Notes under the pieces: generated by a model
What the model was told of the DNA's origin: nothing
Databases searched by the model: none
Seen by the model: the letters and a program-made list of their open reading frames with translations, nothing else
Position numbers and translations under genes: made by a program
Sequence record: OQ349392.1
Strand: one strand, 5' to 3'
Length of the DNA: 64,000 bases
DNA from: Escherichia phage KIT06
Shown: positions 2,404 to 50,406 of the stretch, piece by piece
How positions within the stretch are numbered: position 1 is the first letter of the stretch
Layout of the letters: every line of letters begins with the position of its first letter

Positions 2404-3342
2404 ATGTACAATATTAAATGCCTGACCAAAAACGAACAAGCTGAAATTGTCAAACTGTATTCAAGTGGTAATTATACCCAACAGGAATTGGCTTATTGGA
2501 AAGATGTATCGGTGGACACAATCCGTCGTGTTTTGAAAAATGCTGAAGAAGCTGAACGCTCTAAAGTTACCATTAGCGGTGACATTACAGTTACAGTTAA
2601 TAGCGATGCAGTTATTGCTCCAGTTGCTAAATCTGACATTATTTGGAATGCATCTAAAAAATTCATTTCAATTACTGTTGACGGTGTAACTTATAACGCA
2701 ACTCCTAATACTCATTCAAACTTCCAAGAAATTCTTAATCTGCTTGTAGCGGATAAGTTGGAAGAAGCGGCACAAAAAATTAACGTTCGTCGCGCTGTTG
2801 AAAAATATATTTCCGGTGATGTTCGAATTGAAGGTGGAAGCTTGTTCTATCAAAATATTGAATTACGGTCTGGTTTAGTTGATCGTATTCTCGATTCGAT
2901 GGAAAAAGGCGAAAACTTTGAATTTTATTTTCCGTTCTTGGAAAATCTGTTGGAAAACCCAAGCCAAAAAGCGGTATCTCGACTCTTTGATTTCTTGGTA
3001 GCAAACGATATTGAAATTACAGAAGACGGCTACTTCTATGCTTGGAAAGTAGTTCGCAGCAATTACTTTGACTGTCATTCAAATACTTTTGATAACAGCC
3101 CTGGTAAAGTAGTTAAAATGCCACGTACTCGTGTGAATGACGATGATACACAAACTTGTTCTCGTGGTCTGCATGTGTGTTCTAAATCTTATATTCGTCA
3201 CTTTGGCAGTTCAACCAGTCGAGTTGTAAAAGTTAAAGTGCATCCTCGTGATGTAGTATCAATTCCGATTGATTACAACGATGCTAAAATGCGTACCTGC
3301 CAATACGAAGTAGTTGAAGACGTTACTGAACAATTCAAATAA
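2404..3342 (+). CDS. rIIB: rIIB protein (312 aa)
   Basis: 312 aa ORF, length and position match T4 rIIB; SD-like AGGAAA upstream. Confidence 0.92.
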   Translation: MYNIKCLTKNEQAEIVKLYSSGNYTQQELAYWKDVSVDTIRRVLKNAEEAERSKVTISGDITVTVNSDAVIAPVAKSDIIWNASKKFISITVDGVTYNATPNTHSNFQEILNLLVADKLEEAAQKINVRRAVEKYISGDVRIEGGSLFYQNIELRSGLVDRILDSMEKGENFEFYFPFLENLLENPSQKAVSRLFDFLVANDIEITEDGYFYAWKVVRSNYFDCHSNTFDNSPGKVVKMPRTRVNDDDTQTCSRGLHVCSKSYIRHFGSSTSRVVKVKVHPRDVVSIPIDYNDAKMRTCQYEVVEDVTEQFK

Positions 3343-3370
3343 GGGCTTCGGCCCTTAACTAAGGAAAATT

Positions 3371-3565
3371 ATGTTAGGTTATCAAGCACGAGTAAAAGAA
3401 GAATACGATCAATTAATGCTCAAAATTAACGCACTGAGCAAATTTTTAGAAAGTGAAAAGTTTTCAACGGTTAATGCAGTTGAGCAAGAACTGTTGCTTT
3501 CGCAGTTTATCTCAATGAAATCTTACGCAGATTGTTTAGAGAAAAGAATTGCACAATTCAAATAA
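3371..3565 (+). CDS. Hypothetical small protein (64 aa), rIIB-adjacent
   Basis: ORF with SD AAGGAAA before ATG; followed by hairpin terminator. Confidence 0.5.
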   Translation: MLGYQARVKEEYDQLMLKINALSKFLESEKFSTVNAVEQELLLSQFISMKSYADCLEKRIAQFK

Positions 3566-3569
3566 AGTA

Positions 3570-3591
3570 AAGGGCTTCGGCCCTTTTGTTT
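3570..3591 (+). terminator. Rho-independent terminator, AAGGGC-TTCG-GCCCTT hairpin plus T-run
   Basis: Perfect 6 bp stem with UUCG tetraloop followed by TTTTGTTTT. Confidence 0.6.
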
Positions 3592-3651
3592 TAAGGGAAA
3601 CTATGATTTATTATATTAACATCAGTGATTCCGACGTAAAAGGAAAGTTTA

Positions 3652-4209
3652 ATGCAGAAAACGAATCCGGGTTTACAGAGACTATTTCAGATTCCGACAT
3701 TTACCCTATCGAACAGTGACTTGACTAGTGAAATGAAGGTCAAAATTGCTGACACAGCAAGATACTCTTTAAAACAAAACCCGAACCAGGATAAAGCAGA
3801 AGTTATCGAAAGATGCCGTATCGCTGTGTATGCAGAGTTTTTTGTAGCAGATTGGCTGAGTGGGTATGTTAATAAAGGTCAAGAGGATGTTAATGACCCG
3901 TATACATATGCGTGGGATGTACTGGCGCATCCAAAATACTGTGGGCTTCGTGTAGAAGTCAAAACACATCAAACTGACTCACGTTGGATTTCGGTAACAA
4001 CCGGATGCAGCGGGGAGTATCCATATGGTTCTGGAATAAATCTAGGGCCCATTCTGAATCATCAGGTCGCTGACTGTATAATTATATTCAACACTAAAGA
4101 AATTCATCCAGGTGTCATCCAGTACACTCCGAAGTTCATCGGTGATAGAGAAGACCTTCGTAAGGTTGTAAGAAAAAGCAACTACAGCGGATGGTATCTT
4201 TCCATTTAA
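3652..4209 (+). CDS. denB: Endonuclease IV (185 aa)
   Basis: 185 aa, same length as T4 DenB as I recall; position between rIIB and ndd. Confidence 0.8.
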   Translation: MQKTNPGLQRLFQIPTFTLSNSDLTSEMKVKIADTARYSLKQNPNQDKAEVIERCRIAVYAEFFVADWLSGYVNKGQEDVNDPYTYAWDVLAHPKYCGLRVEVKTHQTDSRWISVTTGCSGEYPYGSGINLGPILNHQVADCIIIFNTKEIHPGVIQYTPKFIGDREDLRKVVRKSNYSGWYLSI

Positions 4210-4225
4210 AAATTTTCACAAAACG

Positions 4226-4264
4226 GTTTACATACCACAAGGACTGTGGTACTATACAACTATC
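4226..4264 (+). promoter_or_regulatory. T4-type early promoter (GTTTAC, 18 bp spacer, TACTAT) including conserved 20-mer TGTGGTACTATACAACTATC
   Basis: GTTTAC at 4226-4231, TACTAT at 4250-4255, upstream A-rich tract; 20-mer shared with 3 other sites. Confidence 0.6.
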
Positions 4265-4282
4265 AGCTACGGAGGAGTAAAA

Positions 4283-4546
4283 ATGAAATTTAAATTTTAT
4301 TACGCTAAACATAAAATAACTGATGAGTTTGTGTCAGTTGAATATTCTAGCGATGATGAAGGTATGATTTATACTCGTTTGGGACTATCGCATTGGGAGT
4401 CTGATACGCCTTATTTTTCAACTCCTGAAGAAATTACACGCTTAGTTAATGGTCATATGAATGACCACTGGGATGTAATTCTTACAGATAGTCTTAAAGC
4501 GGCTATTAATAGTAATGAAATGAAAATCGCTGAGATTGAACTATGA
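4283..4546 (+). CDS. Hypothetical protein (87 aa)
   Basis: ORF with SD GGAGGAG 8 nt upstream of ATG. Confidence 0.5.
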   Translation: MKFKFYYAKHKITDEFVSVEYSSDDEGMIYTRLGLSHWESDTPYFSTPEEITRLVNGHMNDHWDVILTDSLKAAINSNEMKIAEIEL

Positions 4547-4731
4547 GTTCATTATGGTGGTGTTTTGTTTGGTTAATTAGTATTCCATTAATTTGTTTAA
4601 CATTTACTTTTGTGATGAGGTTATTATGAAAATTTTGAATTCTGTACTTATTGCTTGTGCGTGGTGGGTTGCGCAAGTTTCGGCAGTAGTGATTGGTATT
4701 CACATTTATTACGAATATTTTTAAAAAAGTT

Positions 4732-4770
4732 GTTTACAAGACTGTTCCTCTGTGGTACTATACAACTATC
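4732..4770 (+). promoter_or_regulatory. T4-type early promoter (GTTTAC-N18-TACTAT) with conserved 20-mer
   Basis: GTTTAC 4732-4737, TACTAT 4756-4761, 20-mer 4751-4770. Confidence 0.6.
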
Positions 4771-4789
4771 AACTACGGAGGAACAGAAA

Positions 4790-4903
4790 ATGAAAAAGAT
4801 TGTTAAAGCTATATGGAATGTAGTTATAATACTAGTAGTTTTGAGTATATTCCCAATCGTTTTAATGATTGATGTATTAAACGCTTACTTTGGATTTATG
4901 TGA
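4790..4903 (+). CDS. Small hydrophobic peptide (37 aa, predicted single transmembrane helix)
   Basis: ATG at 4790 preceded by SD GGAGGA; inside longer track ORF 4655..4903. Confidence 0.35.
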   Translation: MKKIVKAIWNVVIILVVLSIFPIVLMIDVLNAYFGFM

Positions 4904-4910
4904 GGAAAAT

Positions 4911-5108
4911 ATGAAGCGTAAACGCAGTGCTTTTACATTTATGGAATGGTTTTTCGATAATATTTTTCCAGCTTTATTCATTTTCATGCTGATTTTTGCC
5001 TTAGGTTCAGTTGTAGTTGGAATCTATTTGATGGCAGTTGTCGGAATGGATATTCACCAAAATGGTTTAAAATCTGTGGTTGAAACAATTTGGAATGGTG
5101 TAAAATGA
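4911..5108 (+). CDS. Small membrane protein (65 aa, two hydrophobic segments)
   Basis: ATG at 4911 preceded by GAGGA; track ORF 4890..5108 starts further upstream. Confidence 0.45.
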   Translation: MKRKRSAFTFMEWFFDNIFPALFIFMLIFALGSVVVGIYLMAVVGMDIHQNGLKSVVETIWNGVK

Positions 5109-6335: not shown

Positions 6336-7664
6336 ATGCAACTGAATAATCGCGATTTAAAAAGTATCATTGATAATGAAGCATTGGCTTATGCTATGTA
6401 CACGGTTGAAAACCGTGCTATTCCAAATATGATTGATGGATTTAAGCCAGTTCAACGATTTGTTATCGCTCGAGCTCTTGATTTGGCACGGGGAAATAAA
6501 GATAAGTTTCACAAACTTGCTTCTATTGCAGGTGGTGTAGCAGACCTTGGATATCATCATGGTGAAAACTCTGCGCAAGACGCGGGGGCTTTGATGGCTA
6601 ACACGTGGAATAATAACTTTCCTTTGTTAGATGGTCAAGGAAACTTTGGTTCTCGTACCGTTCAAAAAGCAGCAGCAAGTCGTTATATTTTTGCTCGTGT
6701 AAGTAAAAATTTCTATAACGTATATAAAGATACTGAATATGCTCCGGTACATCAAGATAAAGAACACATTCCGCCTGCTTTCTATTTGCCTATTATTCCT
6801 ACCGTTCTTCTTAATGGTGTTTCCGGTATTGCAACTGGTTATGCAACTTACATTCTTCCTCATAGTGTTTCTTCTGTCAAGAAAGCTGTACTACAAGCTC
6901 TTCAAGGAAAGAAAGTAACTAAACCGAAGGTAGAATTCCCAGAATTTCGCGGTGAAGTCGTTGAAATTGACGGTCAATATGAAATTCGTGGAACGTACAA
7001 GTTTACTTCACGAACTCAAATGAATATCACTGAGATTCCGTATAAGTATGATCGTGAAACTTATGTGAGTAAAATCTTAGACCCGCTTGAAGATAAAGGC
7101 TTCATTACGTGGGATGATGCTTGCGGCGAGCATGGTTTTGGCTTCAAAGTTAAATTCCGTAAAGAATATTCTTTAAGCGATAACGAAGAAGAACGCCATG
7201 CAAAAATTATGAAAGACTTTGGATTGATTGAGCGTCGTTCTCAGAATATTACAGTCATCAACGAGAAAGGAAAACTGCAAGTTTACGATGACGTAGTTGA
7301 TTTAATCAAAGACTTCGTTGAAGTTCGTAAAACTTATGTCCAAAAACGAATTGATAACAAAATCAAAGAAACTGAATCAGCATTTCGTTTAGCCTTTGCC
7401 AAGGCACATTTCATTAAGAAAGTAATTTCAGGTGAAATTGTTGTGCAAGGTAAAACTCGCAAAGAACTGACCGAAGAACTTTCTAAAATTGATATGTATT
7501 CTTCTTATGTTGATAAACTAGTTGGAATGAATATTTTTCATATGACTTCCGACGAAGCAAAGAAACTTGCTGAAGAAGCTAAAGCTAAAAAAGAAGAAAA
7601 CGAATATTGGAAAACTACTGATGTAGTTACAGAATACACTAAAGATTTAGAGGAAATCAAATGA
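6336..7664 (+). CDS. 52: DNA topoisomerase II medium subunit (GyrA-like, 442 aa)
   Basis: 442 aa; recognised N-terminal sequence; same length as T4 gp52. Confidence 0.93.
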   Translation: MQLNNRDLKSIIDNEALAYAMYTVENRAIPNMIDGFKPVQRFVIARALDLARGNKDKFHKLASIAGGVADLGYHHGENSAQDAGALMANTWNNNFPLLDGQGNFGSRTVQKAAASRYIFARVSKNFYNVYKDTEYAPVHQDKEHIPPAFYLPIIPTVLLNGVSGIATGYATYILPHSVSSVKKAVLQALQGKKVTKPKVEFPEFRGEVVEIDGQYEIRGTYKFTSRTQMNITEIPYKYDRETYVSKILDPLEDKGFITWDDACGEHGFGFKVKFRKEYSLSDNEEERHAKIMKDFGLIERRSQNITVINEKGKLQVYDDVVDLIKDFVEVRKTYVQKRIDNKIKETESAFRLAFAKAHFIKKVISGEIVVQGKTRKELTEELSKIDMYSSYVDKLVGMNIFHMTSDEAKKLAEEAKAKKEENEYWKTTDVVTEYTKDLEEIK

Positions 7665-41462: not shown

Positions 41463-41665
41463 ATATAATTAATAAGATTTTTGGAATTCAGTACATTAAG
41501 GTCACATATAAAGTAACGTATAAAGGTCCGTATACCGATGAACATGAAGAGCCGCAAGTTAAGTCTATTATATTAGAAAAGGACCCTAACTGGCCAATTG
41601 AATTTCGTCTTCCTTGCTATGGTCATTGGGCTGATGTTGAAATTATAAGTATTGAAAATGTCTGA
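41459..41665 (+). CDS. Hypothetical protein (68 aa)
   Basis: ORF with ATGA overlap. Confidence 0.45.
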   Translation: MNIINKIFGIQYIKVTYKVTYKGPYTDEHEEPQVKSIILEKDPNWPIEFRLPCYGHWADVEIISIENV

Positions 41666-42116
41666 GTTAGAGATTAGAAGCAATTTTAGATGGCCATCAT
41701 GTGCATTAAGTAATTTCGCCCAATGGCCTTTTGTTATGGATGGTATCCAATTTGGAGGTCTCGAAGGATTCCTCCAAGGATGCAAGGTGAAAAATGTTGA
41801 ACAACAGCGTCGTATATTTGGGTTATCCGGGCTTGCCGCCCAACAAGCTGGAAGGTCTTATGCAAGAGCTCAGGACCATGGCACGTTGTTCTGGCTTGGA
41901 ACTCCGTTTTCAAGATATTCCGAAGCATGGAAAGAATTATACACAAATGCATATTTTGAAGCCGCGATCCAAAACAAGGGGTTTCGTGATGCCTTACAAG
42001 CCTCTAAAGGAAAAATTTTGAAGCACAGCATGGCTAGCGGTCTAACAAAAGATGATACAATACTAACCGAAGCTGAATTTATTGATGTGTTAAACCTATT
42101 AAGAGACTCTCTATGA
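41652..42116 (+). CDS. NADAR (YbiA-like) domain protein (154 aa)
   Basis: Motif LSNFAQWPFVMDGIQFGGLEGFLQGCK resembles the NADAR signature FSNFxxWP..DG......EhyfQaxK of E. coli YbiA. Confidence 0.6.
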   Translation: MKMSELEIRSNFRWPSCALSNFAQWPFVMDGIQFGGLEGFLQGCKVKNVEQQRRIFGLSGLAAQQAGRSYARAQDHGTLFWLGTPFSRYSEAWKELYTNAYFEAAIQNKGFRDALQASKGKILKHSMASGLTKDDTILTEAEFIDVLNLLRDSL

Positions 42117-42943
42117 AGCCAACTATTTTGACTGATATTGATGGAGTATGTTTAAGCTGGCAATCAGGCCTTCCTTATTTTGCTCAGAAATATAATCTTC
42201 CGTTAGAACATATTTTAAAAATGATCCAAGATGAGAAATTTATTTCTCCAGGTAAACTCTTTAATTGTGACGAAGAACTTGGCGTCAAGTTAATTGAAAA
42301 ATACAATCGTTCAGATTTTATTCGTTACTTGTCTCCGTATAAAGATGCCCTGTGTGTAATTAACAAATTAAAAGAAGATTATAATTTTGTAGCTGTTACA
42401 GCATTGGGTGATTCTATTGACGCTCTGTTGAATCGTCAATTTAATTTGAATGCTCTTTTTCCTGGTGCTTTCTCGGAAGTAATGATGTGTGGTCATGATT
42501 CTTCAAAAGAAGAGCTGTTCAAAAAGGCAAAAGAGAAATATAACGTAATTTGTTATATTGACGATCTCGCTCATCACTGCGATCATGCGAGTGAAATATT
42601 AAATGTTCCTGTTTATTGGATGGCTCGAGGGGAGCGTGATAATATTCCAAAAACTGCTCAGCGAGTTTATACATGGAATGATGTAGAAAATAAGCTTTTT
42701 TCGCCGAAGGAAAATAAAGAAAGTTTTGATAGTGAAAAAGCTATAAAAGATTTAATTGAGAAGATGGTTAAAAACGATTCTTTTCCTTGGAACACTACCT
42801 GGAGAACGCCTGGATTAAATCCTTATAATCATCCATATCAGACACATCCGTTTCAGACATGGAACTATATTAAACCTGGTGGCATAGAGTATTTGTATAA
42901 TAGACCTACTAGTGGTGATAATATTTTTCAAGGAGCATTCTAA
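42113..42943 (+). CDS. HAD-superfamily hydrolase-like protein (276 aa)
   Basis: N-terminal ILTDIDGV motif (HAD motif I, DxDG). Confidence 0.55.
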   Translation: MKPTILTDIDGVCLSWQSGLPYFAQKYNLPLEHILKMIQDEKFISPGKLFNCDEELGVKLIEKYNRSDFIRYLSPYKDALCVINKLKEDYNFVAVTALGDSIDALLNRQFNLNALFPGAFSEVMMCGHDSSKEELFKKAKEKYNVICYIDDLAHHCDHASEILNVPVYWMARGERDNIPKTAQRVYTWNDVENKLFSPKENKESFDSEKAIKDLIEKMVKNDSFPWNTTWRTPGLNPYNHPYQTHPFQTWNYIKPGGIEYLYNRPTSGDNIFQGAF

Positions 42944-43209
42944 TGTTTGTTGTTCATACTATTTATGAAAATGAAGGTAATACTACACGTGATTACGGTC
43001 ACGTAAATCAATTTTTTAGATGCAATCCAGAATTCCGTGCTCAAAAAGACGAACGAATTTTTAAAAAATGTGTAGAACAAGGTTTCATTTACGTCAAGCA
43101 CTGGATGCAAGGAAATAAAGTTAGAACTACATATCATAAGTCTTTGCCTGAGCTTAATGATGAATTGATTTATAATAGAGCTGTAAACCAAACCTTGAAG
43201 GATGAATAA
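42943..43209 (+). CDS. Hypothetical protein (88 aa)
   Basis: ORF with TAATG overlap; directly precedes ligase. Confidence 0.5.
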   Translation: MFVVHTIYENEGNTTRDYGHVNQFFRCNPEFRAQKDERIFKKCVEQGFIYVKHWMQGNKVRTTYHKSLPELNDELIYNRAVNQTLKDE

Positions 43210-44669
43210 TGATTCTTAAAATTCTGAATGAAATAGCATCTATTGGTTCAACTAAGCAGAAGCAAGCAATTCTTGAAAAGAATAAAGATAATGAATTGCT
43301 TAAACGAGTATATCGTCTGACTTATTCTCGTGGGTTACAGTATTATATCAAGAAATGGCCTAAACCTGGTATTGCTACCCAGAGTTTTGGAATGCTGACT
43401 ATTACCGATATGCTTGACTTCATTGAATTCACGTTAGCTACTCGGAAATTAACTGGCAATGCAGCAATTGAGGAATTAACTGGATATATCACCGATGGTA
43501 AAAAGGATGATGTTGAAGTTTTGCGTCGAGTTATGATGCGAGACCTTGAATGCGGTGCTTCAGTATCTATTGCAAACAAAGTTTGGCCAGGTTTAATTCC
43601 TGAACAACCTCAAATGCTGGCAAGTTCTTATGATGAAAAAGGCATTAGTAAGAATATCAAGTTTCCAGCTTTTGCGCAGTTAAAAGCAGATGGAGCTCGG
43701 TGTTTTGCTGAAGTCCGAGGTGATGAATTAGATGATGTTCGTCTTTTATCACGAGCTGGCAATGAATACCTAGGATTAGATCTTCTTAAGGAAGAGTTAA
43801 TCAAAATGACTGCTGAAGCCCGCCAGATTCATCCAGAAGGTGTGTTAATTGATGGCGAATTGGTATACCATGAGCAAGTTGAAAAGGAACCAGAAGGCCT
43901 AGATTTTCTTTTTGATGCTCCTGAAATCAGTAAAGCTAAAGAATTCGCCGAAGTAGCTGAATCACGTACTGCTTCTAATGGAATCGCCAATAAATCTTTA
44001 AAGGGAACTATTTCAGAAAAAGAAGCCAAATGTATGAAGTTTCAGGTCTGGGATTATGTTCCGTTGGTAGAAATATACGGTCTTCCGGCGTTTCGTTTAA
44101 AATATGATGTACGTTTTTCTAAACTAGAACAAATGACATCAGGATATGATAAAGTAATTTTAATTGAAAACCAAGTAGTAAATAACCTAGATGAAGCTAA
44201 GGTAATTTATAAAAAATATATTGACCAAGGTCTTGAAGGTATTATTCTCAAAAATACCGATGGATTGTGGGAAAATGCTCGTTCAAAAAATCTCTATAAA
44301 TTTAAAGAAGTAATTGATGTTGATTTAAAAATTGTAGGAATTTATCCTCACCGTAAAGACCCTACTAAAGCAGGTGGATTTATTCTTGAGTCAGAGTGTG
44401 GAAAAATTAAAGTAAATGCTGGTTCAGGCTTAAAAGATAAAGCCGGTGTAAAATCACATGAACTTGACCGTACTCGCATTATGGAAAACCAAAATTATTA
44501 TATTGGAAAAATTCTAGAGTGCGAATGCAACGGTTGGCTAAAATCTGATGGCCGCACTGATTACGTAAAATTATTTCTTCCAATTGCGATTCGTTTGCGT
44601 GAAGATAAAACAAAAGCTAATACATTCGAGGATGTATTTGGTGATTTTCATGAGGTAACTGGTCTATGA
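43209..44669 (+). CDS. 30: ATP-dependent DNA ligase (486 aa)
   Basis: Recognised as T4 DNA ligase (MILKILNEIASIGSTKQKQAILEKNKDNELLKRVYRL...); adenylation lysine motif in FAQLKADGAR. Confidence 0.95.
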   Translation: MILKILNEIASIGSTKQKQAILEKNKDNELLKRVYRLTYSRGLQYYIKKWPKPGIATQSFGMLTITDMLDFIEFTLATRKLTGNAAIEELTGYITDGKKDDVEVLRRVMMRDLECGASVSIANKVWPGLIPEQPQMLASSYDEKGISKNIKFPAFAQLKADGARCFAEVRGDELDDVRLLSRAGNEYLGLDLLKEELIKMTAEARQIHPEGVLIDGELVYHEQVEKEPEGLDFLFDAPEISKAKEFAEVAESRTASNGIANKSLKGTISEKEAKCMKFQVWDYVPLVEIYGLPAFRLKYDVRFSKLEQMTSGYDKVILIENQVVNNLDEAKVIYKKYIDQGLEGIILKNTDGLWENARSKNLYKFKEVIDVDLKIVGIYPHRKDPTKAGGFILESECGKIKVNAGSGLKDKAGVKSHELDRTRIMENQNYYIGKILECECNGWLKSDGRTDYVKLFLPIAIRLREDKTKANTFEDVFGDFHEVTGL

Positions 44670-44854
44670 AAGCTTACTTAGAAACAATTGTCATTGCTCA
44701 AAAAGAAGGTGGAGATGTTTCTACTTCTGTATCACAAGTCATTCTCGAATTTGTAGATGCATATGCTTATAATAAATTTACAGAAACATTTGATGCCTAC
44801 GAAAAAGGTCCAAAGTTTGAAATATATCGTACTCTCTTACCATTAGATTATTAA
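44666..44854 (+). CDS. Hypothetical protein (62 aa)
   Basis: ORF with ATGA overlap to ligase; followed by hairpin terminator. Confidence 0.45.
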   Translation: MKAYLETIVIAQKEGGDVSTSVSQVILEFVDAYAYNKFTETFDAYEKGPKFEIYRTLLPLDY

Positions 44855-44876
44855 AGGCCTTCGGGCCTTTAATTTT
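44853..44876 (+). terminator. Hairpin terminator
   Basis: AAAGGCC-TTCG-GGCCTTT hairpin followed by AATTTT. Confidence 0.55.
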
Positions 44877-44883
44877 ATAAATA
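44876..44883 (+). promoter_or_regulatory. Late promoter TATAAATA upstream of alt
   Basis: Exact TATAAATA about 20 nt upstream of the alt ATG. Confidence 0.6.
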
Positions 44884-44903
44884 GAATAAACACTAGAGAG
44901 GAT

Positions 44904-47000
44904 ATGATGGAACTCATTACAGAATTATTTGACGAAGATACTACTCTTCCGATTACAAACTTAAATCCAAAGAAGAAAATACCGCAAATTTTTTCAGTTC
45001 ATGTTGATGACGCAATTGAACAACCAGGCTTTCGTTTATGTACCTATACATCTGGAGGTGATACTAACCGTGATCTAAAGATGGGCGATAAAATGATGCA
45101 CATTGTTCCTTTTACATTAACTGCTAAAGGTTCAATTGCTAAATTGAAAGGTCTCGGTCCAAGCCCAATTAATTACATCAATTCAGTTTTTACTGTTGCG
45201 ATGCAAACGATGCGTCAGTATAAAATTGATGCCTGCATGCTTCGTATTCTTAAGTCTAAAACTGCCGGTCAAGCTCGACAAATTCAAGTTATTGCTGATA
45301 GACTTATCCGTAGTCGTTCGGGTGGCAGATACGTCCTTCTTAAGGAACTCTGGGATTACGATAAAAAGTACGCATATATTCTTATACATCGCAAAAATGT
45401 ATCACTAGAAGACATTCCAGGAGTTCCGGAAATTAGTACCGAGCTCTTTACTAAAGTTGAATCGAAAGTCGGCGATGTTTATATCAATAAAGATACTGGA
45501 GCTCAAGTAACTAAAAATGAGGCAATTGCTGCATCTATTGCGCAAGAAAATGATAAGCGTTCTGACCAAGCTGTAATCGTTAAAGTTAAAATTTCCCGTA
45601 GAGCAATTGCGCAAAGTCAGTCATTGGAATCTTCTAGATTTGAAAGCGAATTATTCCAGAAATATGAATCTACCGCAGCTAATTTCAATAAACCCGCTAC
45701 AGCTCCTTTAATTCCCGAAGCAGAAGAAATGAAGCTTGGAATTAATTCATTAGCTTCTAAAACTAAGGCAGCAAAAATTATTGCTGAAGGAACTGCAGAT
45801 GAACTTCACTATGACTATAAATTCTTTTCAAAAAGTGAGGTTAATGAAGTTTCTGAAAAAATTAAAGACGTAATTCTTAATGCGATTAAAAATGAACCAA
45901 CTACTTCAATAAAATGTTTAGAGAAGTATGCAGCAGCTATTAATAAATTCTTTGAAGAATATAAAGATACTTGGCTTGATAAACATAATAAAACCCGTAA
46001 AGGACAGCCAGATGAAGTCTGGGAAGAAATAACTAAAAATTCCTGGAACGCAGCAAAAACTAAATTCCTCAAACGAATGATTTATAGCTTTTCTGGAATT
46101 GGTGCAGGTCCAATGATTGATATTACTATTGCCCGTGATGGTTCTAAATATACTCCATCACAAAAGCGCGGCATTAGAGAATATTGTGGTTCAGGATATA
46201 CTGACATCAATAATCTTCTTTTAGGACGCTACAATCCAGAACGATATGATGTAATGAGTGAAAAAGAAATTGAATCTGCGATAAATAATTTAGATTCAGC
46301 CTTTGAAAATGGTGACCGTATACCAGAAGGCATTACAGTTTATCGTGCTCAAAGTATGACTGCTCCTATATACGAAGCGCTAGTTAAAAATAAAGTGTTC
46401 TATTTCAGAAATTTTGTATCTACTTCTTTAACTCCTATCATTTTTGGACGTTTTGGAATTACACATGCTGGTATCGGTCTTTTAGAACCAGAAGCTCGTA
46501 ATGAATTAACAGTTGATAAAAATGAAGAAGGAATAACTATTAATCCGAACGAAATAAGAGCGTATAAAGAAAATCCTGAATACGTTAAAGTTCAAATAGG
46601 ATGGGCAATTGATGGAGCTCATAAAGTTAATGTTGTATATCCAGGGAGTCTCGGAATAGCAACAGAAGCTGAAGTAATTCTACCACGCGGATTGATGGTC
46701 AAAGTTAATAAAATAACTGATGCTTCTAATAATGACGGAACAACATCTAATAACACAAAACTCATTCAAGCTGAAGTTATGACTACGGAAGAACTCACCG
46801 AATCAGTAATTTATGACGGTGACCGTCTAATGGAAACTGGTGAAGTAGTTGCAATGACAGATGATATTGAAATAGAAGACAGAGTTGACTTTGCATCATT
46901 TGTTTCATCAAATGTTAAACAGAAAGCAGAATCATCTCTCGGAATTATTGCGTCTTGCATAGATATTACAAACATGCCTTACAAGTTCGTTCAAGGATAA
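44904..47000 (+). CDS. alt: ADP-ribosyltransferase Alt (about 697 aa), capsid-packaged
   Basis: N-terminus MELITELFDEDTTLPITNL as T4 Alt; C-terminal half has R / S-T-S / E-x-E ART signatures (YR, FVSTSL, EAEV); start probably ATG 44907. Confidence 0.85.
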   Translation: MMELITELFDEDTTLPITNLNPKKKIPQIFSVHVDDAIEQPGFRLCTYTSGGDTNRDLKMGDKMMHIVPFTLTAKGSIAKLKGLGPSPINYINSVFTVAMQTMRQYKIDACMLRILKSKTAGQARQIQVIADRLIRSRSGGRYVLLKELWDYDKKYAYILIHRKNVSLEDIPGVPEISTELFTKVESKVGDVYINKDTGAQVTKNEAIAASIAQENDKRSDQAVIVKVKISRRAIAQSQSLESSRFESELFQKYESTAANFNKPATAPLIPEAEEMKLGINSLASKTKAAKIIAEGTADELHYDYKFFSKSEVNEVSEKIKDVILNAIKNEPTTSIKCLEKYAAAINKFFEEYKDTWLDKHNKTRKGQPDEVWEEITKNSWNAAKTKFLKRMIYSFSGIGAGPMIDITIARDGSKYTPSQKRGIREYCGSGYTDINNLLLGRYNPERYDVMSEKEIESAINNLDSAFENGDRIPEGITVYRAQSMTAPIYEALVKNKVFYFRNFVSTSLTPIIFGRFGITHAGIGLLEPEARNELTVDKNEEGITINPNEIRAYKENPEYVKVQIGWAIDGAHKVNVVYPGSLGIATEAEVILPRGLMVKVNKITDASNNDGTTSNNTKLIQAEVMTTEELTESVIYDGDRLMETGEVVAMTDDIEIEDRVDFASFVSSNVKQKAESSLGIIASCIDITNMPYKFVQG

Positions 47001-47003
47001 ATC

Positions 47004-49061
47004 ATGGAACTTATTACAGAATTATTTGACGGCGCTTCGGCGCCGGTTGTTAACTTAAATCCTAAGCATAAAATACCTCAAATTTTTGCTATTCAAGCCG
47101 GCGAAGAAAGTGTGCTTCCTGGATTTAGATTTTGTACATACACCTCTGGCGGTGATACAAATAAAAACGTTAAGCCAGGCGATAAAATGATGCATATCGT
47201 AATGATAGGTGTTAATGAGAAACTATCATTAGTTAAACTTAAAAACTTGGGTGGAAATCCAATTGGTGTCATTAATGCAGTTTTTGATACTGCTCTTCAA
47301 ACAATGAAACAGTATAAAATTGACGCATGCTTATTCCGCGTACTAAAGAGTAAAACAAATGGCGCTGCTCGTCAAATGCAAGTTATTGCCGACCGTTTAG
47401 TACGTACTAAAGGAGCAGGTCGATATGTTCTTTTAAAGGAAATCTGGGACTATGATAAGAAATATGCATATATTATGGTTTACCGTAAAAATGCCAATTT
47501 AGAAGACATTCCAGGTGTACCTCCTATTTCAACTGAGTTATTCACAAAAGTTGAATCAAAGGTTGGTGATGTTTATGTAGATGTTAAAACAGGTAATGCT
47601 GTTCCTAAAGCTGTTGCTGTTGCTGCTTCTATTGCTTTAGAAAATGATAAGCGTACGGATCAAGCTGTTATTCAGAAAACTAAAATTAGCCGTCGATTAG
47701 CAGCTCAGGCTCAATATTCTACTGTCGATGCTTCACTTCAGGGTGATAGCTTCGCTGCTAAGAAATATCAAGAGTTTGAATCTAAAGTTCCGGTATATAA
47801 AGCAGAAGGACCAATGAACTCTGGCGTTATTCAGGTTGGTTCAAACTTCAGTAAAGGAGCTATCGGTGGTATGAGAAGTGCTTCTCGTTTTAAATCTAGT
47901 GATTATGAACTAGAAAGCTTCAGAAATCATATTGCATTGGCTCATGCACGTTTACGTGATCCATCTATCAAGTTACAGAGCGATATAACATATCAAGGTT
48001 CTCAGGAATATTTAAAGAATAAAGAATTTTTTGATTATAAAACTGATAAAATTTTAAGCGATCTCGCTGACATTAATATTTCTAATAGCTTTGATGTTAT
48101 TAAGAAAATTATCAATGATTTAGTTAAAGGTTCTAAAGCCACGCCAGATGAAAAGGTAGCTATTGTTCAATTTGTCATGAATGGCATTTATAAATTGATT
48201 AATGAGTCTGCTTCTCAAGCGTATGAATATGCAAGTACTGAAGTACCCCCAAAAGGATTAACTCGGGCTGAGTCTGATGTAATTGAAGATTATTGCGCAG
48301 ATTCATATGTTGAAATGAACTCGTTCCTTTTAGGTAAACCAGATTCTACTCGTGAAGAATACATGGAACGAGCTATTAAACACATCGAGACAATGGATTC
48401 TGCCTTTGCCAAAGGATCAGTTCTTCCTCCAGGAACTACGCTTTATCGTGGACAAGAAGTTACTTTTAAAACTTTACGCCATAATATTGAAAATAAAATG
48501 TTCTATTTCAAGAACTTCGTATCAACATCGCTTAAACCAAATATCTTCGGTGAGTATGGTAAAAACTATATGGCCCTAGATGATTCTGGTGCAGTATTTT
48601 CTGGTGAAGGAGAAGGTTCAGTTGATGCTGAAGATTTAATGCATATGGGCAGTCACTCTGCTTACGCGAATGAAGATGCTGAAACTAGCGTGGGTATGGT
48701 AATTAAAGGGGCTGAGCGAATCAAAGTTATCGTTCCAGGTCATTTATCAGGATTTCCATCAGAAGCTGAAGTTATTCTACCGCGCGGAATTTTACTGAAG
48801 ATTAATAAAGTAAGTACGTACTTTATGAAAGAAACTGCTTATAACAAGTATCTAATAGAAGGTACAATCGTTCCTCCTTCTGAACAATTAGAGGAATCGG
48901 TATATGATGGCGAGCATCTAATGGAAACTGGCGAAGTTCGTCCAATGGCTGGATTTAATCAATTCCTTGTAGAAGAATCAAAAGAAGAGGAAAACGAAGT
49001 TTCTCAAATCTTGGCTTCTTTGGTTAACATCAACGGAATGTCTAAAAAGTTCAAAATGTAG
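47004..49061 (+). CDS. Second Alt-like ADP-ribosyltransferase paralog (685 aa)
   Basis: N-terminal ~230 aa closely parallel the upstream alt; divergent C-terminal half keeps YR...FVSTSL...EAEVILPRG motifs. Confidence 0.7.
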   Translation: MELITELFDGASAPVVNLNPKHKIPQIFAIQAGEESVLPGFRFCTYTSGGDTNKNVKPGDKMMHIVMIGVNEKLSLVKLKNLGGNPIGVINAVFDTALQTMKQYKIDACLFRVLKSKTNGAARQMQVIADRLVRTKGAGRYVLLKEIWDYDKKYAYIMVYRKNANLEDIPGVPPISTELFTKVESKVGDVYVDVKTGNAVPKAVAVAASIALENDKRTDQAVIQKTKISRRLAAQAQYSTVDASLQGDSFAAKKYQEFESKVPVYKAEGPMNSGVIQVGSNFSKGAIGGMRSASRFKSSDYELESFRNHIALAHARLRDPSIKLQSDITYQGSQEYLKNKEFFDYKTDKILSDLADINISNSFDVIKKIINDLVKGSKATPDEKVAIVQFVMNGIYKLINESASQAYEYASTEVPPKGLTRAESDVIEDYCADSYVEMNSFLLGKPDSTREEYMERAIKHIETMDSAFAKGSVLPPGTTLYRGQEVTFKTLRHNIENKMFYFKNFVSTSLKPNIFGEYGKNYMALDDSGAVFSGEGEGSVDAEDLMHMGSHSAYANEDAETSVGMVIKGAERIKVIVPGHLSGFPSEAEVILPRGILLKINKVSTYFMKETAYNKYLIEGTIVPPSEQLEESVYDGEHLMETGEVRPMAGFNQFLVEESKEEENEVSQILASLVNINGMSKKFKM

Positions 49062-49114
49062 TTTACAAGTCCCTCGTGTTGTGTTACAGTAGTCTTACTG
49101 ACATAACATGAGGA
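49061..49114 (+). repeat. 54 bp promoter/5'UTR cassette, copy 2
   Basis: Identical to 33966-34019. Confidence 0.8.
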
Positions 49115-49121
49115 ACACAAA

Positions 49122-49412
49122 ATGAAATCTTCTTTACGCTTTTTAGGTCAAGAACTTGTAGTTGAAGGCGTTATTCCTGCTGATAATGCTTTTAATGAAG
49201 CAGTTTACGATGAATTTATTAAAATTTTTGGAACAGATAAAAAGTTCGGAATTTTTCCTTCTGAAAATTTTTCAAAGCCAGAACAGACTGAAAGCATTTT
49301 CCAAGGTGTAGTAACAGGCAAATTTGAGTCAGAAGCTCCGGTAAAAATTGAAGTTTATATTGAAGACAGTTTAGTTGCTTCAGTTGCTGCTTTTATTTCA
49401 TTCCGTAAATAA
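49122..49412 (+). CDS. Hypothetical protein (96 aa)
   Basis: ORF with SD GAGGAACA; followed by bidirectional hairpin. Confidence 0.5.
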   Translation: MKSSLRFLGQELVVEGVIPADNAFNEAVYDEFIKIFGTDKKFGIFPSENFSKPEQTESIFQGVVTGKFESEAPVKIEVYIEDSLVASVAAFISFRK

Positions 49413-49418
49413 AAACAT

Positions 49419-49436
49419 GGGGACCGAAAGGTCCCC
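49419..49436. terminator. Bidirectional hairpin terminator between convergent genes
   Basis: GGGGACC-GAAA-GGTCCCC perfect 7 bp stem; A-run upstream and T-rich downstream. Confidence 0.6.
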
Positions 49437-49440
49437 GTTG

Positions 49441-50406
49441 TTATATTGCTCCTAATATTTTACTCTGCGAATTGACAATCCCTGTCATAGTATTAATGTT
49501 TGAAATGCTTCCCGCAGTTCCTCCTAATCTACTAAGTCGTGAAAGCGAATTAGATAGTCCAGTAACACCTCCGCTATTTCCGAGAACGCTTTGAATGCCA
49601 TTTATAGCAGCAGATTCAAGCCATTCAAGCGCAGCTTGTCTATCAACCGACCCAGCCTGCATGACTCTATACGCAAAAGTAACATCAAATGTAGTTATTT
49701 GGTTATCTCCATCATATGATAACTCAGGAGCGCTCACTGACACTGGAATGCATCCGGTGAACATCACCGCAGTATGAGGCAATCCATTGCGAGCATGAAG
49801 ATTAACTTGAATATCTGCCTCGACATCTTGTGGCAAAGCACGCAATCCAGTTACTGGGTCTTGAACAGCGTTAACCCAGTCTTGCATTGCACGATAGTTA
49901 CATGCTTCTGAATCCATTCTAAATGAAATAACCAAAGGGTCTAATTCTCTTCCGGTTATGCGAATATTAGGAGAATTGTAGTTCCAGTCAGTTTCATAGG
50001 ATAATCTATTCTCTGGCATTTTTACAGAATATATCATCAATCCAGATGAGTTATATGCCATGTTAAAGAAGTCAATTAAATATGTACCAACTGTAAATGA
50101 GCCCAATAAACTTTGAACCGTACGTTGACTCATGGCACCAATAAGATATTTACTAACCCCTGATTTTCTTATCAGTTTTTGTGTGCCAGCTGTAATTAGC
50201 GTAGTAATTCCCTGATTAATATCACCTTGAGTTAATCCTAACCAATCTGAATTTAGGCCCAAGTTATTATAAGAAAAGTTGCTAATTGAACTTATCAACG
50301 AAGAGCTTTTAGTTGATGGAGTTGTTGCAAAAACGCAGCTAAACATATTATTACGTTGGAAATCTGCGTTTATTGCTTGATTATTAAATTCCTCTAAAGA
50401 ATACAT
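49441..50406 (-). CDS. 54: Baseplate tail-tube initiator gp54 (321 aa)
   Basis: Length and position in the 51-27-28-29-48-54 block. Confidence 0.85.
   Translation of the reverse strand: MYSLEEFNNQAINADFQRNNMFSCVFATTPSTKSSSLISSISNFSYNNLGLNSDWLGLTQGDINQGITTLITAGTQKLIRKSGVSKYLIGAMSQRTVQSLLGSFTVGTYLIDFFNMAYNSSGLMIYSVKMPENRLSYETDWNYNSPNIRITGRELDPLVISFRMDSEACNYRAMQDWVNAVQDPVTGLRALPQDVEADIQVNLHARNGLPHTAVMFTGCIPVSVSAPELSYDGDNQITTFDVTFAYRVMQAGSVDRQAALEWLESAAINGIQSVLGNSGGVTGLSNSLSRLSRLGGTAGSISNINTMTGIVNSQSKILGAI

Follow-up and report, generated by a model that had tools for sequence, protein, structure and literature searches.

The locus described here lies within the window, i.e., the whole stretch of 64,000 nucleotides of Escherichia phage KIT06 (OQ349392.1) that was analyzed, and it contains two adjacent alt-like genes, hereafter copy 1 and copy 2. 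The gene order is gene 30, alt.1, copy 1, copy 2 and alt.-3, then genes 54, 48 and 29 on the opposite strand. Both copies thus occupy the slot of the Alt-like family, between gene 30/alt.1 and alt.-3/gene 54. The genes and neighboring elements are as follows:

43209-44669: DNA ligase gene 30, directly upstream of the alt.1 homologue
44666-44854, plus strand: alt.1 homologue of 62 aa (Pfam Phage_blade, 1.9e-29), in the alt.1 position of T4 and PP01
44853-44871, plus strand: G+C-rich hairpin AAAGGCCTTCGGGCCTTT followed by a T-run, resembling a terminator, as read from the sequence
44876-44883, plus strand: T4 late-promoter consensus TATAAATA, found by pattern search, 31 nt ahead of the ATG of copy 1
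44907-47000, plus strand: copy 1, 697 aa
47004-49061, plus strand: copy 2, 685 aa
49062-49090, plus strand: site resembling a sigma-70/early-type promoter (TTTACA-17-TACAGT with TG), located upstream of alt.-3, a consensus match only
49122-49412, plus strand: alt.-3 homologue of 96 aa (DUF5498, Pfam 1.4e-64), in the position it has in T4 and PP01
49417-49438, no strand assigned: hairpin resembling a bidirectional terminator, in the gap between alt.-3 and gene 54
49441-50406, minus strand: gene 54, convergent with alt.-3

A synteny comparison of the alt locus showed the same order in T4, PP01, T2, AR1 and RB27. The hairpin AAAGGCCTTCGGGCCTTT also occurs in T4, identical over the overlap of both reads; a terminator scan did not pick it up at 44853-44871. 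The motif TATAAATA was the sole one of its kind when positions 43001-49600 were searched on both strands, and T4 has an identical motif at the identical position. From this consensus match, it would be the late promoter of copy 1. The total number of sigma-70/early-type promoter-like sites in the region was not above that of shuffles. Translation of copy 1 from the ATG at 44907 gives 697 aa, and from the in-frame ATG at 44904 gives 698 aa. The copy 1 stop and the copy 2 ATG are separated by 3 nt on the same strand, and an AAGGA Shine-Dalgarno sequence for copy 2 sits within the end of copy 1.

Both copies are three-part proteins: an N-terminal domain of about 240 aa is followed by a helical, variable linker and then, at the C-terminus, by an R-S-ExE ADP-ribosyltransferase (ART) domain of the Alt/VIP2/C3 type. 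Their parts are located as follows:

44907-45623, plus strand: copy 1 N-terminal domain (aa 1-239), whose MELITE is a candidate I-x-E site for the prohead protease
46152-46781, plus strand: copy 1 ART domain, aa 416-625 (Pfam PF03496)
46344-46346, 46419-46427 and 46665-46673, plus strand: copy 1 catalytic codons for R480, STS and ExE, checked by translation
46827-46844 (copy 1) and 48918-48935 (copy 2), plus strand: LMETGE within a conserved YDG[DE]HLMETGE motif, candidate L-x-E protease site of hypothetical function
47004-47720, plus strand: copy 2 N-terminal domain, aa 1-239 (AlphaFold model, pLDDT 84, pTM 0.82)
48252-48863, plus strand: copy 2 ART domain, Pfam match over aa 417-620
48447-48449, 48522-48530 and 48762-48770, plus strand: copy 2 catalytic codons for R482, STS and ExE, checked by translation

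Aligned by BLASTP, the two proteins are 41% identical over 718 columns (E 2e-156), well above what chance would give. Identity is 68% in the N-terminal ~239 aa, 19% in the linker, 36% in the ART domain and 37% in the C-tail. These values bear out the initial annotation, which had proposed tandem alt paralogues with a conserved N-terminus and diverged catalytic halves. Both proteins start with MELITELFD, and the DNA of the first six codons (MELITE) is identical between the copies, an 18-nt run. The stretch between STS and ExE is only 9–16% identical, and at the ARTT position, 3 residues ahead of ExE, the copy 2 type has an aromatic residue (Phe584 in copy 2, counted from the first Glu) and the Alt type Pro or Ile. 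Copy 1 matched the phrog_802 profile ('Alt-like RNA polymerase ADP-ribosyltransferase') at 3e-272, and all thirds of copy 2 matched it as well (4e-118, 1.5e-17 and 5e-106). Both copies can therefore be assigned, by sequence, to the Alt-like phage ADP-ribosyltransferases (phrog_802; Alt/VIP2 family, R-S-E clade).

Copy 1 is 72% identical to T4 Alt (gpAlt, NP_049811), the NAD+–arginine ADP-ribosyltransferase packaged in the head, over the full length. It is the positional orthologue of T4 alt, between alt.1 and the second gene, with the same late promoter and hairpin upstream. Identity with T4 Alt is 100% in aa 1-239 and 91% for the C-tail but falls to 65% in the ART domain and to 32% in the linker, so that the linker and ART cassette of T4 represents a different allele. 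The copy 1 cassette matches instead gene b of Dhakavirus WG01, with 66% aa identity in the linker, and 95% aa and 87–93% nt identity in the ART domain. Because position, N-terminal domain and tail agree with T4 while the linker and ART domain are nearer to WG01 b, copy 1 appears as a mosaic orthologue. With this mosaic structure, copy 1 can be classed as the T4 alt orthologue in a 'T2-type' allele, and it is 98–99% identical to copy 1 of T2, RB27 and PP01.

Copy 2 resembles T4 Alt in being built of three parts, in starting with MELITE and in having R-STS-ExE as well as the YDGxxLMETGE motif, and is 43% identical to it over the full length; the ART domains, however, are only 37% identical and the ARTT loops differ. 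Its true counterpart in T4 is found at the same position, between alt and alt.-3, where alt.-1 and alt.-2 (NP_049810, NP_049809) correspond to copy 2 codons 1 to ~115 (window 47004-47351) at 96–97% nt identity. The differences that separate the dead T4 gene from the intact copy 2 map to the following positions:

47163, plus strand: 1 nt missing in T4 within an A-run (global alignment of T4 and window)
47343-47351, plus strand: left 9-nt direct microhomology CTAAAGAGT, marking the junction of the T4 deletion
49042-49050, plus strand: right 9-nt direct microhomology CTAAAAAGT

The 1-nt loss in the A-run leads to a stop and splits the remnant into alt.-1 and alt.-2, and the deletion of 1,699 bp between the 9-nt repeats removes aa ~117-680, including the whole ART domain. 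Two short profiles, phrog_23015 and phrog_15247 (61 and 67 positions), match copy 2 aa 1-56 and 62-117, and presumably represent the families of the alt.-1 and alt.-2 fragments. The initial annotation had assigned a single alt to T4. This is right insofar as only one intact alt is present, but a decayed second copy persists; a full-length second alt-like gene was looked for in reference T4, and only its first ~115 codons, frameshifted, were found. Since only this broken stub of the second gene was kept, T4 is the exception among T-even phages. Copy 2 can be identified as an intact 'alt.-2-type' Alt paralogue.

The initial annotation also implied that the second gene is a peculiarity of this genome, which the distribution contradicts. 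The copy 2 stretch missing from T4 was detected in 401 phage records at ≥80% coverage, including T2, RB27, AR1 and PP01, vs. 91 phage records in which the T4-type deletion junction is contiguous. In T2, RB27, AR1, PP01 and about 400 other Tequatrovirus records, a second 'Alt-like RNA polymerase ADP-ribosyltransferase' of 685 aa stands at the position of copy 2, without substantive difference from it (98–99% protein identity for PP01, T2, AR1 and RB27), and the window adds one more member. Many of these records already annotate two "Alt-like" genes. Most T-even phages thus have two intact alt genes as a rule, and the locus probably represents the ancestral form of their alt cluster, with both genes.

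A related assumption was that of a recent tandem duplicate of alt, quickly diverged, as a novelty of the KIT06 genome. The adjacency of the copies on the same strand, the 18-nt identical run at MELITE and the 68% identity of the N-terminal domains would all fit such an event. However, synonymous sites are saturated between the copies, with a dS of about 1.6 in the N-terminal domain (dN 0.28, dN/dS about 0.17), and nt identity is 62–74% even in this domain. Moreover, the same copy 2 is present in about 396 phage records at 95–99% protein identity, and T4 retains a decayed remnant of it. Finally, Dhakavirus WG01 carries three tandem alt genes (a, b and c) in the slot between the ligase gene and gene 54. 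The linker, ART domain and tail of b match those of copy 1, and the same parts of c match those of copy 2. Copy 2 and its type-matched WG01 counterpart are 58% identical in the ART domain and 66% in the tail. The saturation of synonymous sites and the presence of both counterparts in WG01 indicate that the pair is old. The recent-duplication model is refuted by these observations taken together, and we give it almost no credence.

The duplication itself is already known. According to the T4 RefSeq record, alt.-1 and alt.-2 are what is left of an alt duplication, and Nolan et al. (2006; PMC1524935) listed alt paralogues and alt duplications in 44RR and RB49, with a full-length duplicate in 44RR. 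A 2026 paper described the paralogue pair in phage 6phi13/SHFML-11 (43.29% identity) and proposed expanded targets as a speculation (PMC13600099). As a sequence feature, the two-gene alt locus is thus nothing new, being annotated in hundreds of Tequatrovirus genomes, and the idea of 'expanded targets' is already in print.

The catalytic set reads R480 / S505-T-S507 / E587-A-E589 in copy 1 and R482 / S507-T-S509 / E587-A-E589 in copy 2. In both copies these residues align with R478/STS/E574,E576 of T4 Alt (E575/E577 from the upstream ATG), and R, STS and ExE are invariant in alignments of 7 and 19 Alt-like proteins. The loss of catalytic residues that might have been feared for copy 2 has therefore not occurred, in agreement with the initial annotation. 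The second Glu of ExE corresponds to T4 Alt E577 in the numbering from the upstream ATG, and the E577A mutation abolishes the activity of T4 Alt (PMC11404850). In a profile alignment with C3cer (4xsg) and BECa (5h03), the R and ExE motifs are matched to YR and E/QxE. C3-like and binary-toxin ARTs (C3bot, C3cer, Vis, iota Ia, CDTa, BECa, Vip2) have the same R-S-E fold and motifs, with profile matches reaching E 1e-6; they are, however, bacterial secreted toxins that lack the Alt N-terminal domain and linker, and their sequence identity is only 13–20%.

Copy 2 could be regarded as an inactive pseudoenzyme or a non-enzymatic component of the head core, with a structural or decoy role, in view of its PF03496 (ADPrib_exo_Tox) score, which is below that of copy 1 (70.8 bits, 1.3e-19, vs. 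129.2 bits, 1.6e-37; gathering cut-off 23.4 bits). Its intact and invariant catalytic motifs argue against this. Also, the copy 2 AlphaFold model has a pLDDT of about 80–90 for most of the ART region, lower in loops, and Foldseek matched it to active toxins (Vis, C3/C3bot, CDTa, Vip2, BECa; probability 1.0, E 2e-6 to 2e-4), so that copy 2 is predicted to adopt the ART fold. Among copy 2 orthologues, dN/dS over the whole gene is 0.041–0.049; by this estimate (about 0.045), copy 2 is under strong purifying selection. Head assembly, moreover, does not need gpAlt (PMC9958956). A pseudoenzyme is thus extremely unlikely.

T4 gpAlt is a prohead-core protein present in about 40 copies per head, from which gp21 removes a small N-terminal peptide, and it is carried inside the capsid and injected along with the DNA (PMC9958956). 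We consider it probable that the locus, as an ancestral two-gene cluster, encodes two proteins that are both co-transcribed late, packaged and injected, copy 2 having partly different targets. Both genes would be co-transcribed, starting at the late promoter that precedes copy 1, as the motif TATAAATA, the 3-nt gap and the Shine-Dalgarno sequence inside the end of copy 1 suggest. Both products would enter the prohead core via the common N-terminal domain, be trimmed by the gp21 protease after MELITE, and be injected with the DNA to ADP-ribosylate arginines of host proteins, using NAD+, at the very start of infection. For copy 2, packaging in the capsid is suggested by the N-terminal domain and the late promoter. 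A literature search found no report of expression, packaging, cleavage or enzymatic activity of copy 2.

Alternatively, copy 2 might be active but unpackaged, acting late inside the producing cell, as ModA and ModB do from within. These T4 enzymes are small (about 200 aa) and early-expressed, and are not known to carry the Alt N-terminal domain or to be packaged. According to the literature, they are phage ARTs of the R-S-E clade which act on host transcription and translation proteins. The literature consulted (PMC9958956) does not pinpoint the residues that direct Alt to the capsid, which leaves some room for this alternative. Yet the N-terminal domain and the MELITE propeptide are the parts best conserved between the paralogues, under constraint as the dN/dS given above indicates, and a search of 1.84 billion proteins found this domain almost only as an N-terminal fusion to ART domains. 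An unpackaged copy 2 is accordingly very unlikely.

The N-terminal domains cluster by genome, and the catalytic cassettes by paralogue type, across genera. Grouping by genome is what is expected of a part that has to fit the phage's own head core, and it speaks against an unpackaged copy 2. The N-terminal domains of WG01 are only 43–47% identical to those of the window, and the copy 1 cassette is about 91% nt-identical to a Dhakavirus cassette. The LMETGE-containing motif is kept by T4 Alt, by both copies of the window and by the b and c proteins of WG01, and is absent from WG01 a, a shorter protein (631 aa) without the LMETGE tail. A delivery domain that follows the genome, with cassettes that follow the type and are exchanged across genera, makes a tidy case of modular effector evolution, which extends known themes.

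Regarding targets, copy 2 may be redundant with Alt and have none of its own, as about 91 T4-type genomes lack it. It would then modify the same proteins, e.g., RNA polymerase alpha at Arg265, and raise or back up the injected dose. The architecture, the catalytic motifs and the presumed delivery route are indeed all the same as in Alt, and the T4 lineage lost copy 2 and is still a vigorous phage. Against this stand the low identity of the ART domains and of the STS–ExE insert, the aromatic residue at the ARTT position where the Alt type has Pro or Ile, and the fact that strong purifying selection has maintained both paralogue types separately in different genera, as is not usually seen with purely redundant genes. 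Redundancy thus seems rather unlikely to us. With two injected enzymes, as we prefer, the targets of copy 2 would differ at least partly from those of Alt, which is plausible from the 36% ART identity and the ARTT-loop difference. Copy 2 would also be conditionally dispensable, as its loss in the T4 lineage suggests.

A more specific reading, which we put forward tentatively as falling somewhat short of probable, is that copy 2 is a second injected arginine ADP-ribosyltransferase with non-Alt host targets (e.g., a host defense or translation factor), carried by about four in five of the T-even phages sequenced and overlooked in decades of research on T4 because it is deleted there. The Alt N-terminal domain would then be a virion-delivery module evolving with each phage's head, onto which linker/ART cassettes are swapped between genera. 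As T4 lacks copy 2, results on host takeover obtained with T4 may under-describe the first seconds of infection by most T-even phages.

The gene order around the two Alt-like genes follows that of T4 from gene 30 to gene 29, based on ORFs and Pfam assignments:

43209-44669, + strand, DNA ligase gp30
44666-44854, + strand, alt.1 (Pfam Phage_blade)
44904/44907-47000, + strand, copy 1, the positional alt orthologue, ORF of 698/697 aa
47004-49061, + strand, copy 2, ORF of 685 aa
49122-49412, + strand, alt.-3 (DUF5498)
downstream of alt.-3, - strand, genes 54, 48 and 29

In copy 1 (window 44904-44909) and in T4 (7503-7509 of the T4 sequence, L001), ELITE follows two in-frame ATGs in a row; the annotated start differs among databases, AR1 using the first ATG. 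Elsewhere in the window, the gp30.3 homologue (41652-42116; Pfam Phage_30_3, 1e-68) contains in another frame a nested 75-aa ORF (41794-42021), at the same place as the T4-annotated 30.3', and the 30.2 homologue (42113-42943) gave no Pfam match.

The initial annotation had described a tandem duplication of alt with a divergent second copy. Its ORF lengths, common MELITELFD start, kept N-terminal region and diverged remainder all agree with the pairwise alignment and with the identities calculated by region: 68% in the N-domain (aa 1-239), 19% in the linker, 36% in the ADP-ribosyltransferase (ART) domain and 37% in the C-tail. BLASTP aligned the two proteins end to end at 41% identity (E 2e-156), both carry PF03496 (ADPrib_exo_Tox; 129 bits in copy 1 and 71 bits in copy 2, for a cut-off of 23.4), and PHROG 802, "Alt-like RNA polymerase ADP-ribosyltransferase", covers both end to end. 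No NCBIfam model matched either copy.

In T4 (NC_000866) the order is 30, alt.1, alt, alt.-1, alt.-2, alt.-3, 54, and the annotation of this record already explains alt.-1 and alt.-2 as what is left of the duplicated gene. Translated, alt.-1 (61 aa) and alt.-2 (67 aa) differ very little from copy 2 residues 1 to about 115. At the DNA level, T4 is 96-97% identical to window 46995-47351, with two differences. T4 is one nucleotide short in the A-run at window 47163, which gives the stop that divides alt.-1 from alt.-2. Then, the alignment resumes only at window 49042, the two ends of the gap being marked by a 9-nt direct repeat:

47343-47351, left 9-nt direct repeat, CTAAAGAGT
49042-49050, right 9-nt direct repeat, CTAAAAAGT

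T4 consequently lacks 1,699 bp, corresponding to copy 2 codons ~117-680 and including the whole catalytic domain. Thus, the gene is intact in the window, whereas T4 keeps the wreck of copy 2. That T4 has a single alt, as first noted, holds in the sense that no full-length second gene is present, but a remnant of it persists as alt.-1/alt.-2. As the gene was lost in the T4 lineage, a phage can do without copy 2 on at least some hosts, and this loss is compatible with either a conditional role or redundancy.

The intact arrangement is widespread. Among 543 matching phage records, 369 contain the whole 4.9-kb block at a coverage of at least 80%, and two "Alt-like RNA polymerase ADP-ribosyltransferase" genes are annotated in many of these. 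The second gene was seen in the records of PP01, AR1, T2 and RB27, the latter carrying the note "alt.-2". The stretch missing from T4 was present in 401 records (at least 80% coverage, 90-99% nucleotide identity), and the T4-type deletion junction was contiguous in 91. More widely, tblastn detected Alt-like genes in 1,222 phage records, with one to three per genome, and the protein cluster of copy 2 has 772 member sequences in a metagenome-scale protein set. Paralogous alt duplications have been reported for T4 (alt.-1/alt.-2), RB49 (ORF183c) and 44RR (ORF188c), together with a full-length alt duplicate, ORF187c, in 44RR (Nolan et al. 2006, PMC1524935). [quoted passage not shown] Literature searches turned up no pertinent functional or proteomic study of the second copy. 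In T-even genomes, two genes are therefore the usual condition, one already annotated and published: given the record annotations and these two papers, both the finding and its interpretation were already known. The initial reading was right in outline, but the second copy is not a novelty, as the T4 remnant, the phage records and the literature attest.

The catalytic residues, whose codons were verified by translation, are intact in both copies:

copy 1: R480; S505-T-S507; E587-A-E589
copy 2: R482; S507-T-S509; E587-A-E589

The R / S-T-S / E-x-E signatures first noticed in the two ORFs are thus genuine, and the Arg, Ser-Thr-Ser and Glu-x-Glu motifs were invariant in alignments of 7 and of 19 Alt-like proteins. 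Within the R-S-E clade, E-x-E is the arginine-specific form and Q-x-E is that of the Asn-specific C3 enzymes. A search of PDB sequences with copy 2 as single sequence gave no match; toxins of the C3, iota and Vis types were reached only with a 7-sequence profile. In this family profile, the YR and ExE segments align with the corresponding motifs of C3cer (4xsg) and BECa (5h03), with further matches to iota Ia, CDTa, Vis, Certhrax and Vip2. Neither copy 2 nor the Alt-family profile matched a solved structure in the PDB beyond these distant toxins, so that a T4 Alt structure seems absent from the PDB copy searched. The AlphaFold model of copy 2 had a mean pLDDT of 72.5, with ~80-90 for most of the ART region, and was matched by Foldseek to Vis, C3bot, CDTa, Vip2 and BECa with a probability of 1.0. 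In T4 Alt, the ExE motif is E574/E576 in the RefSeq translation, the second Glu being E577 when counted from the upstream in-frame ATG; this ATG explains the numbering in the mutagenesis study, where ADP-ribosylation was abolished in E577A (PMC11404850).

Copy 2 is under strong purifying selection. Its orthologues (window, PP01, T2, AR1, RB27) gave dN/dS values of 0.041-0.049, and copy 2 is thus a functional gene whose coding sequence is conserved; for copy 1, compared within one allele type, the range was 0.03-0.07. Between the copies, the 240 N-terminal codons showed a dS of about 1.6, which is saturated, and a dN of 0.28; the dN/dS of this common N-domain, about 0.17, indicates purifying selection. 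The longest identical nucleotide run between the copies is 18 nt, namely the MELITE codons. This run and the N-domain dS rule out recent gene conversion between the copies, and neither dS nor identical runs showed any sign of a recent duplication.

The Dhakavirus WG01 has three tandem Alt-like genes (a, b, c) in the same slot as the pair of the window. WG01 b shares with copy 1 66% identity in the linker, 95% in the ART domain and 54% in the tail, and WG01 c shares with copy 2 45, 58 and 66%, to be compared with 19, 36 and 37% between copies 1 and 2. As b pairs with copy 1 and c with copy 2, both paralogue types are present in both genera. We read this as evidence for an old origin of the types but, given the exchange of cassettes between genera indicated below, not as proof of strictly vertical descent. 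Copy 1 is identical to T4 Alt over aa 1-239 and 91% identical in the tail, but only 32% in the linker and 65% in the ART domain. Against WG01 b (L007, the WG01 sequence, 2916-4997), copy 1 (44907-47000) reaches 87-93% nucleotide identity over aa 411-624, with 38-63% in the N-domain. By these comparisons copy 1 is a mosaic allele, and they indicate that the catalytic cassette was exchanged between genera fairly recently. At least two alt alleles exist in Tequatrovirus, the T4/AR1 type and the window/T2/RB27/PP01 type.

In the linker, ART domain and tail, the proteins of the two genera cluster according to paralogue type. The N-domains (window 44907-45623 and 47004-47720; WG01, L007 1012-7124) are 68% identical within the window, 64-68% within WG01 and 43-47% across genera, which suggests that these domains evolve in concert, or together with the head core of their own phage. 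The part fitting the head would then evolve with the genome, or be homogenised within it, and the effector part would be exchangeable.

The sequences also point, indirectly, to substrates of copy 2 that may differ from those of Alt: the two copies share only 36% identity in the ART domain and 9-16% in the stretch inserted between STS and ExE, and the ARTT loops (copy 1, 46656-46673; copy 2, 48753-48770) differ in type. The position three residues before ExE is aromatic in proteins of the copy 2 type, with Phe in the window and in T2, Tyr in the c protein of WG01 and Trp in its a protein, and likewise in C3 and iota-type enzymes; in the Alt/copy-1 type it is Pro or Ile. By analogy, this residue is a possible determinant of substrate specificity.

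Concerning expression, one putative late promoter was found, in the arrangement of hairpin and late promoter that T4 has upstream of alt:

44876, + strand, T4 late-promoter consensus TATAAATA, right after a conserved hairpin and 31 nt 5' of the copy 1 ATG

A pattern search found no other late-promoter motif in 43001-49600. Only 3 nt separate the copy 1 stop from the copy 2 start, and an AAGGA Shine-Dalgarno lies within the end of copy 1. In the simplest reading, the two genes would be transcribed together late in infection. A sigma-70 promoter scan gave 19 sites, not above shuffled sequences (17.8 ± 3.9); at this shuffle level, one promoter-like site precedes alt.-3.

The gp21 protease motif is I-x-E, and MELITE, kept in both window proteins, fits it. 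Near the C-terminus, YDG[DE]xLMETGE (46812-46844 in copy 1, 48903-48935 in copy 2) also occurs in T4 Alt and WG01 b and c, amid divergent C-tails; the shorter WG01 a lacks it. Hypothetically, its L-x-E might offer the prohead protease a second site. The prohead core of T4 contains gpAlt, a non-essential protein present in about 40 copies per head. From gpAlt, gp21 takes a small N-terminal peptide, the only trimming mentioned, and after entry gpAlt ADP-ribosylates host RNA polymerase (PMC9958956); it is injected with the DNA (PMC9503650). Because of this behaviour and the kept MELITE, N-domain and LMETGE motif, the products of both copies would be expected to be packaged, trimmed and injected.

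No Pfam model of the release searched matched the N-domain. In precomputed annotations, PF26846 is assigned to nearly all full-length Alt-like proteins but not to the N-terminally truncated P0008 and P0010; it presumably models the Alt N-terminal region. Among 1.84 billion proteins, only 69 cluster representatives matched the N-domain sequence. Most are Alt-like in length, and Pfam found PF03496 in 7 of the 10 scanned. At the sequence level, the N-domain is rare and, judging from the lengths and the 10 scanned, nearly always fused to an ART domain. Among BFVD predicted viral structures, it resembles N-terminal parts of large uncharacterised proteins (probability 1.0, TM 0.4-0.55, 10-16% identity) from Ackermannviridae-like, Vibrio and Agrobacterium jumbo phages; the names of some of these proteins refer to a zeta-toxin, deaminase or ParB/Srx domain. 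The N-domain as a general delivery module for other effectors is thus a lead, its candidate non-ART partners appearing only at the level of predicted structure. The interest of the locus now lies in the biochemistry of the second enzyme and in its modular evolution.
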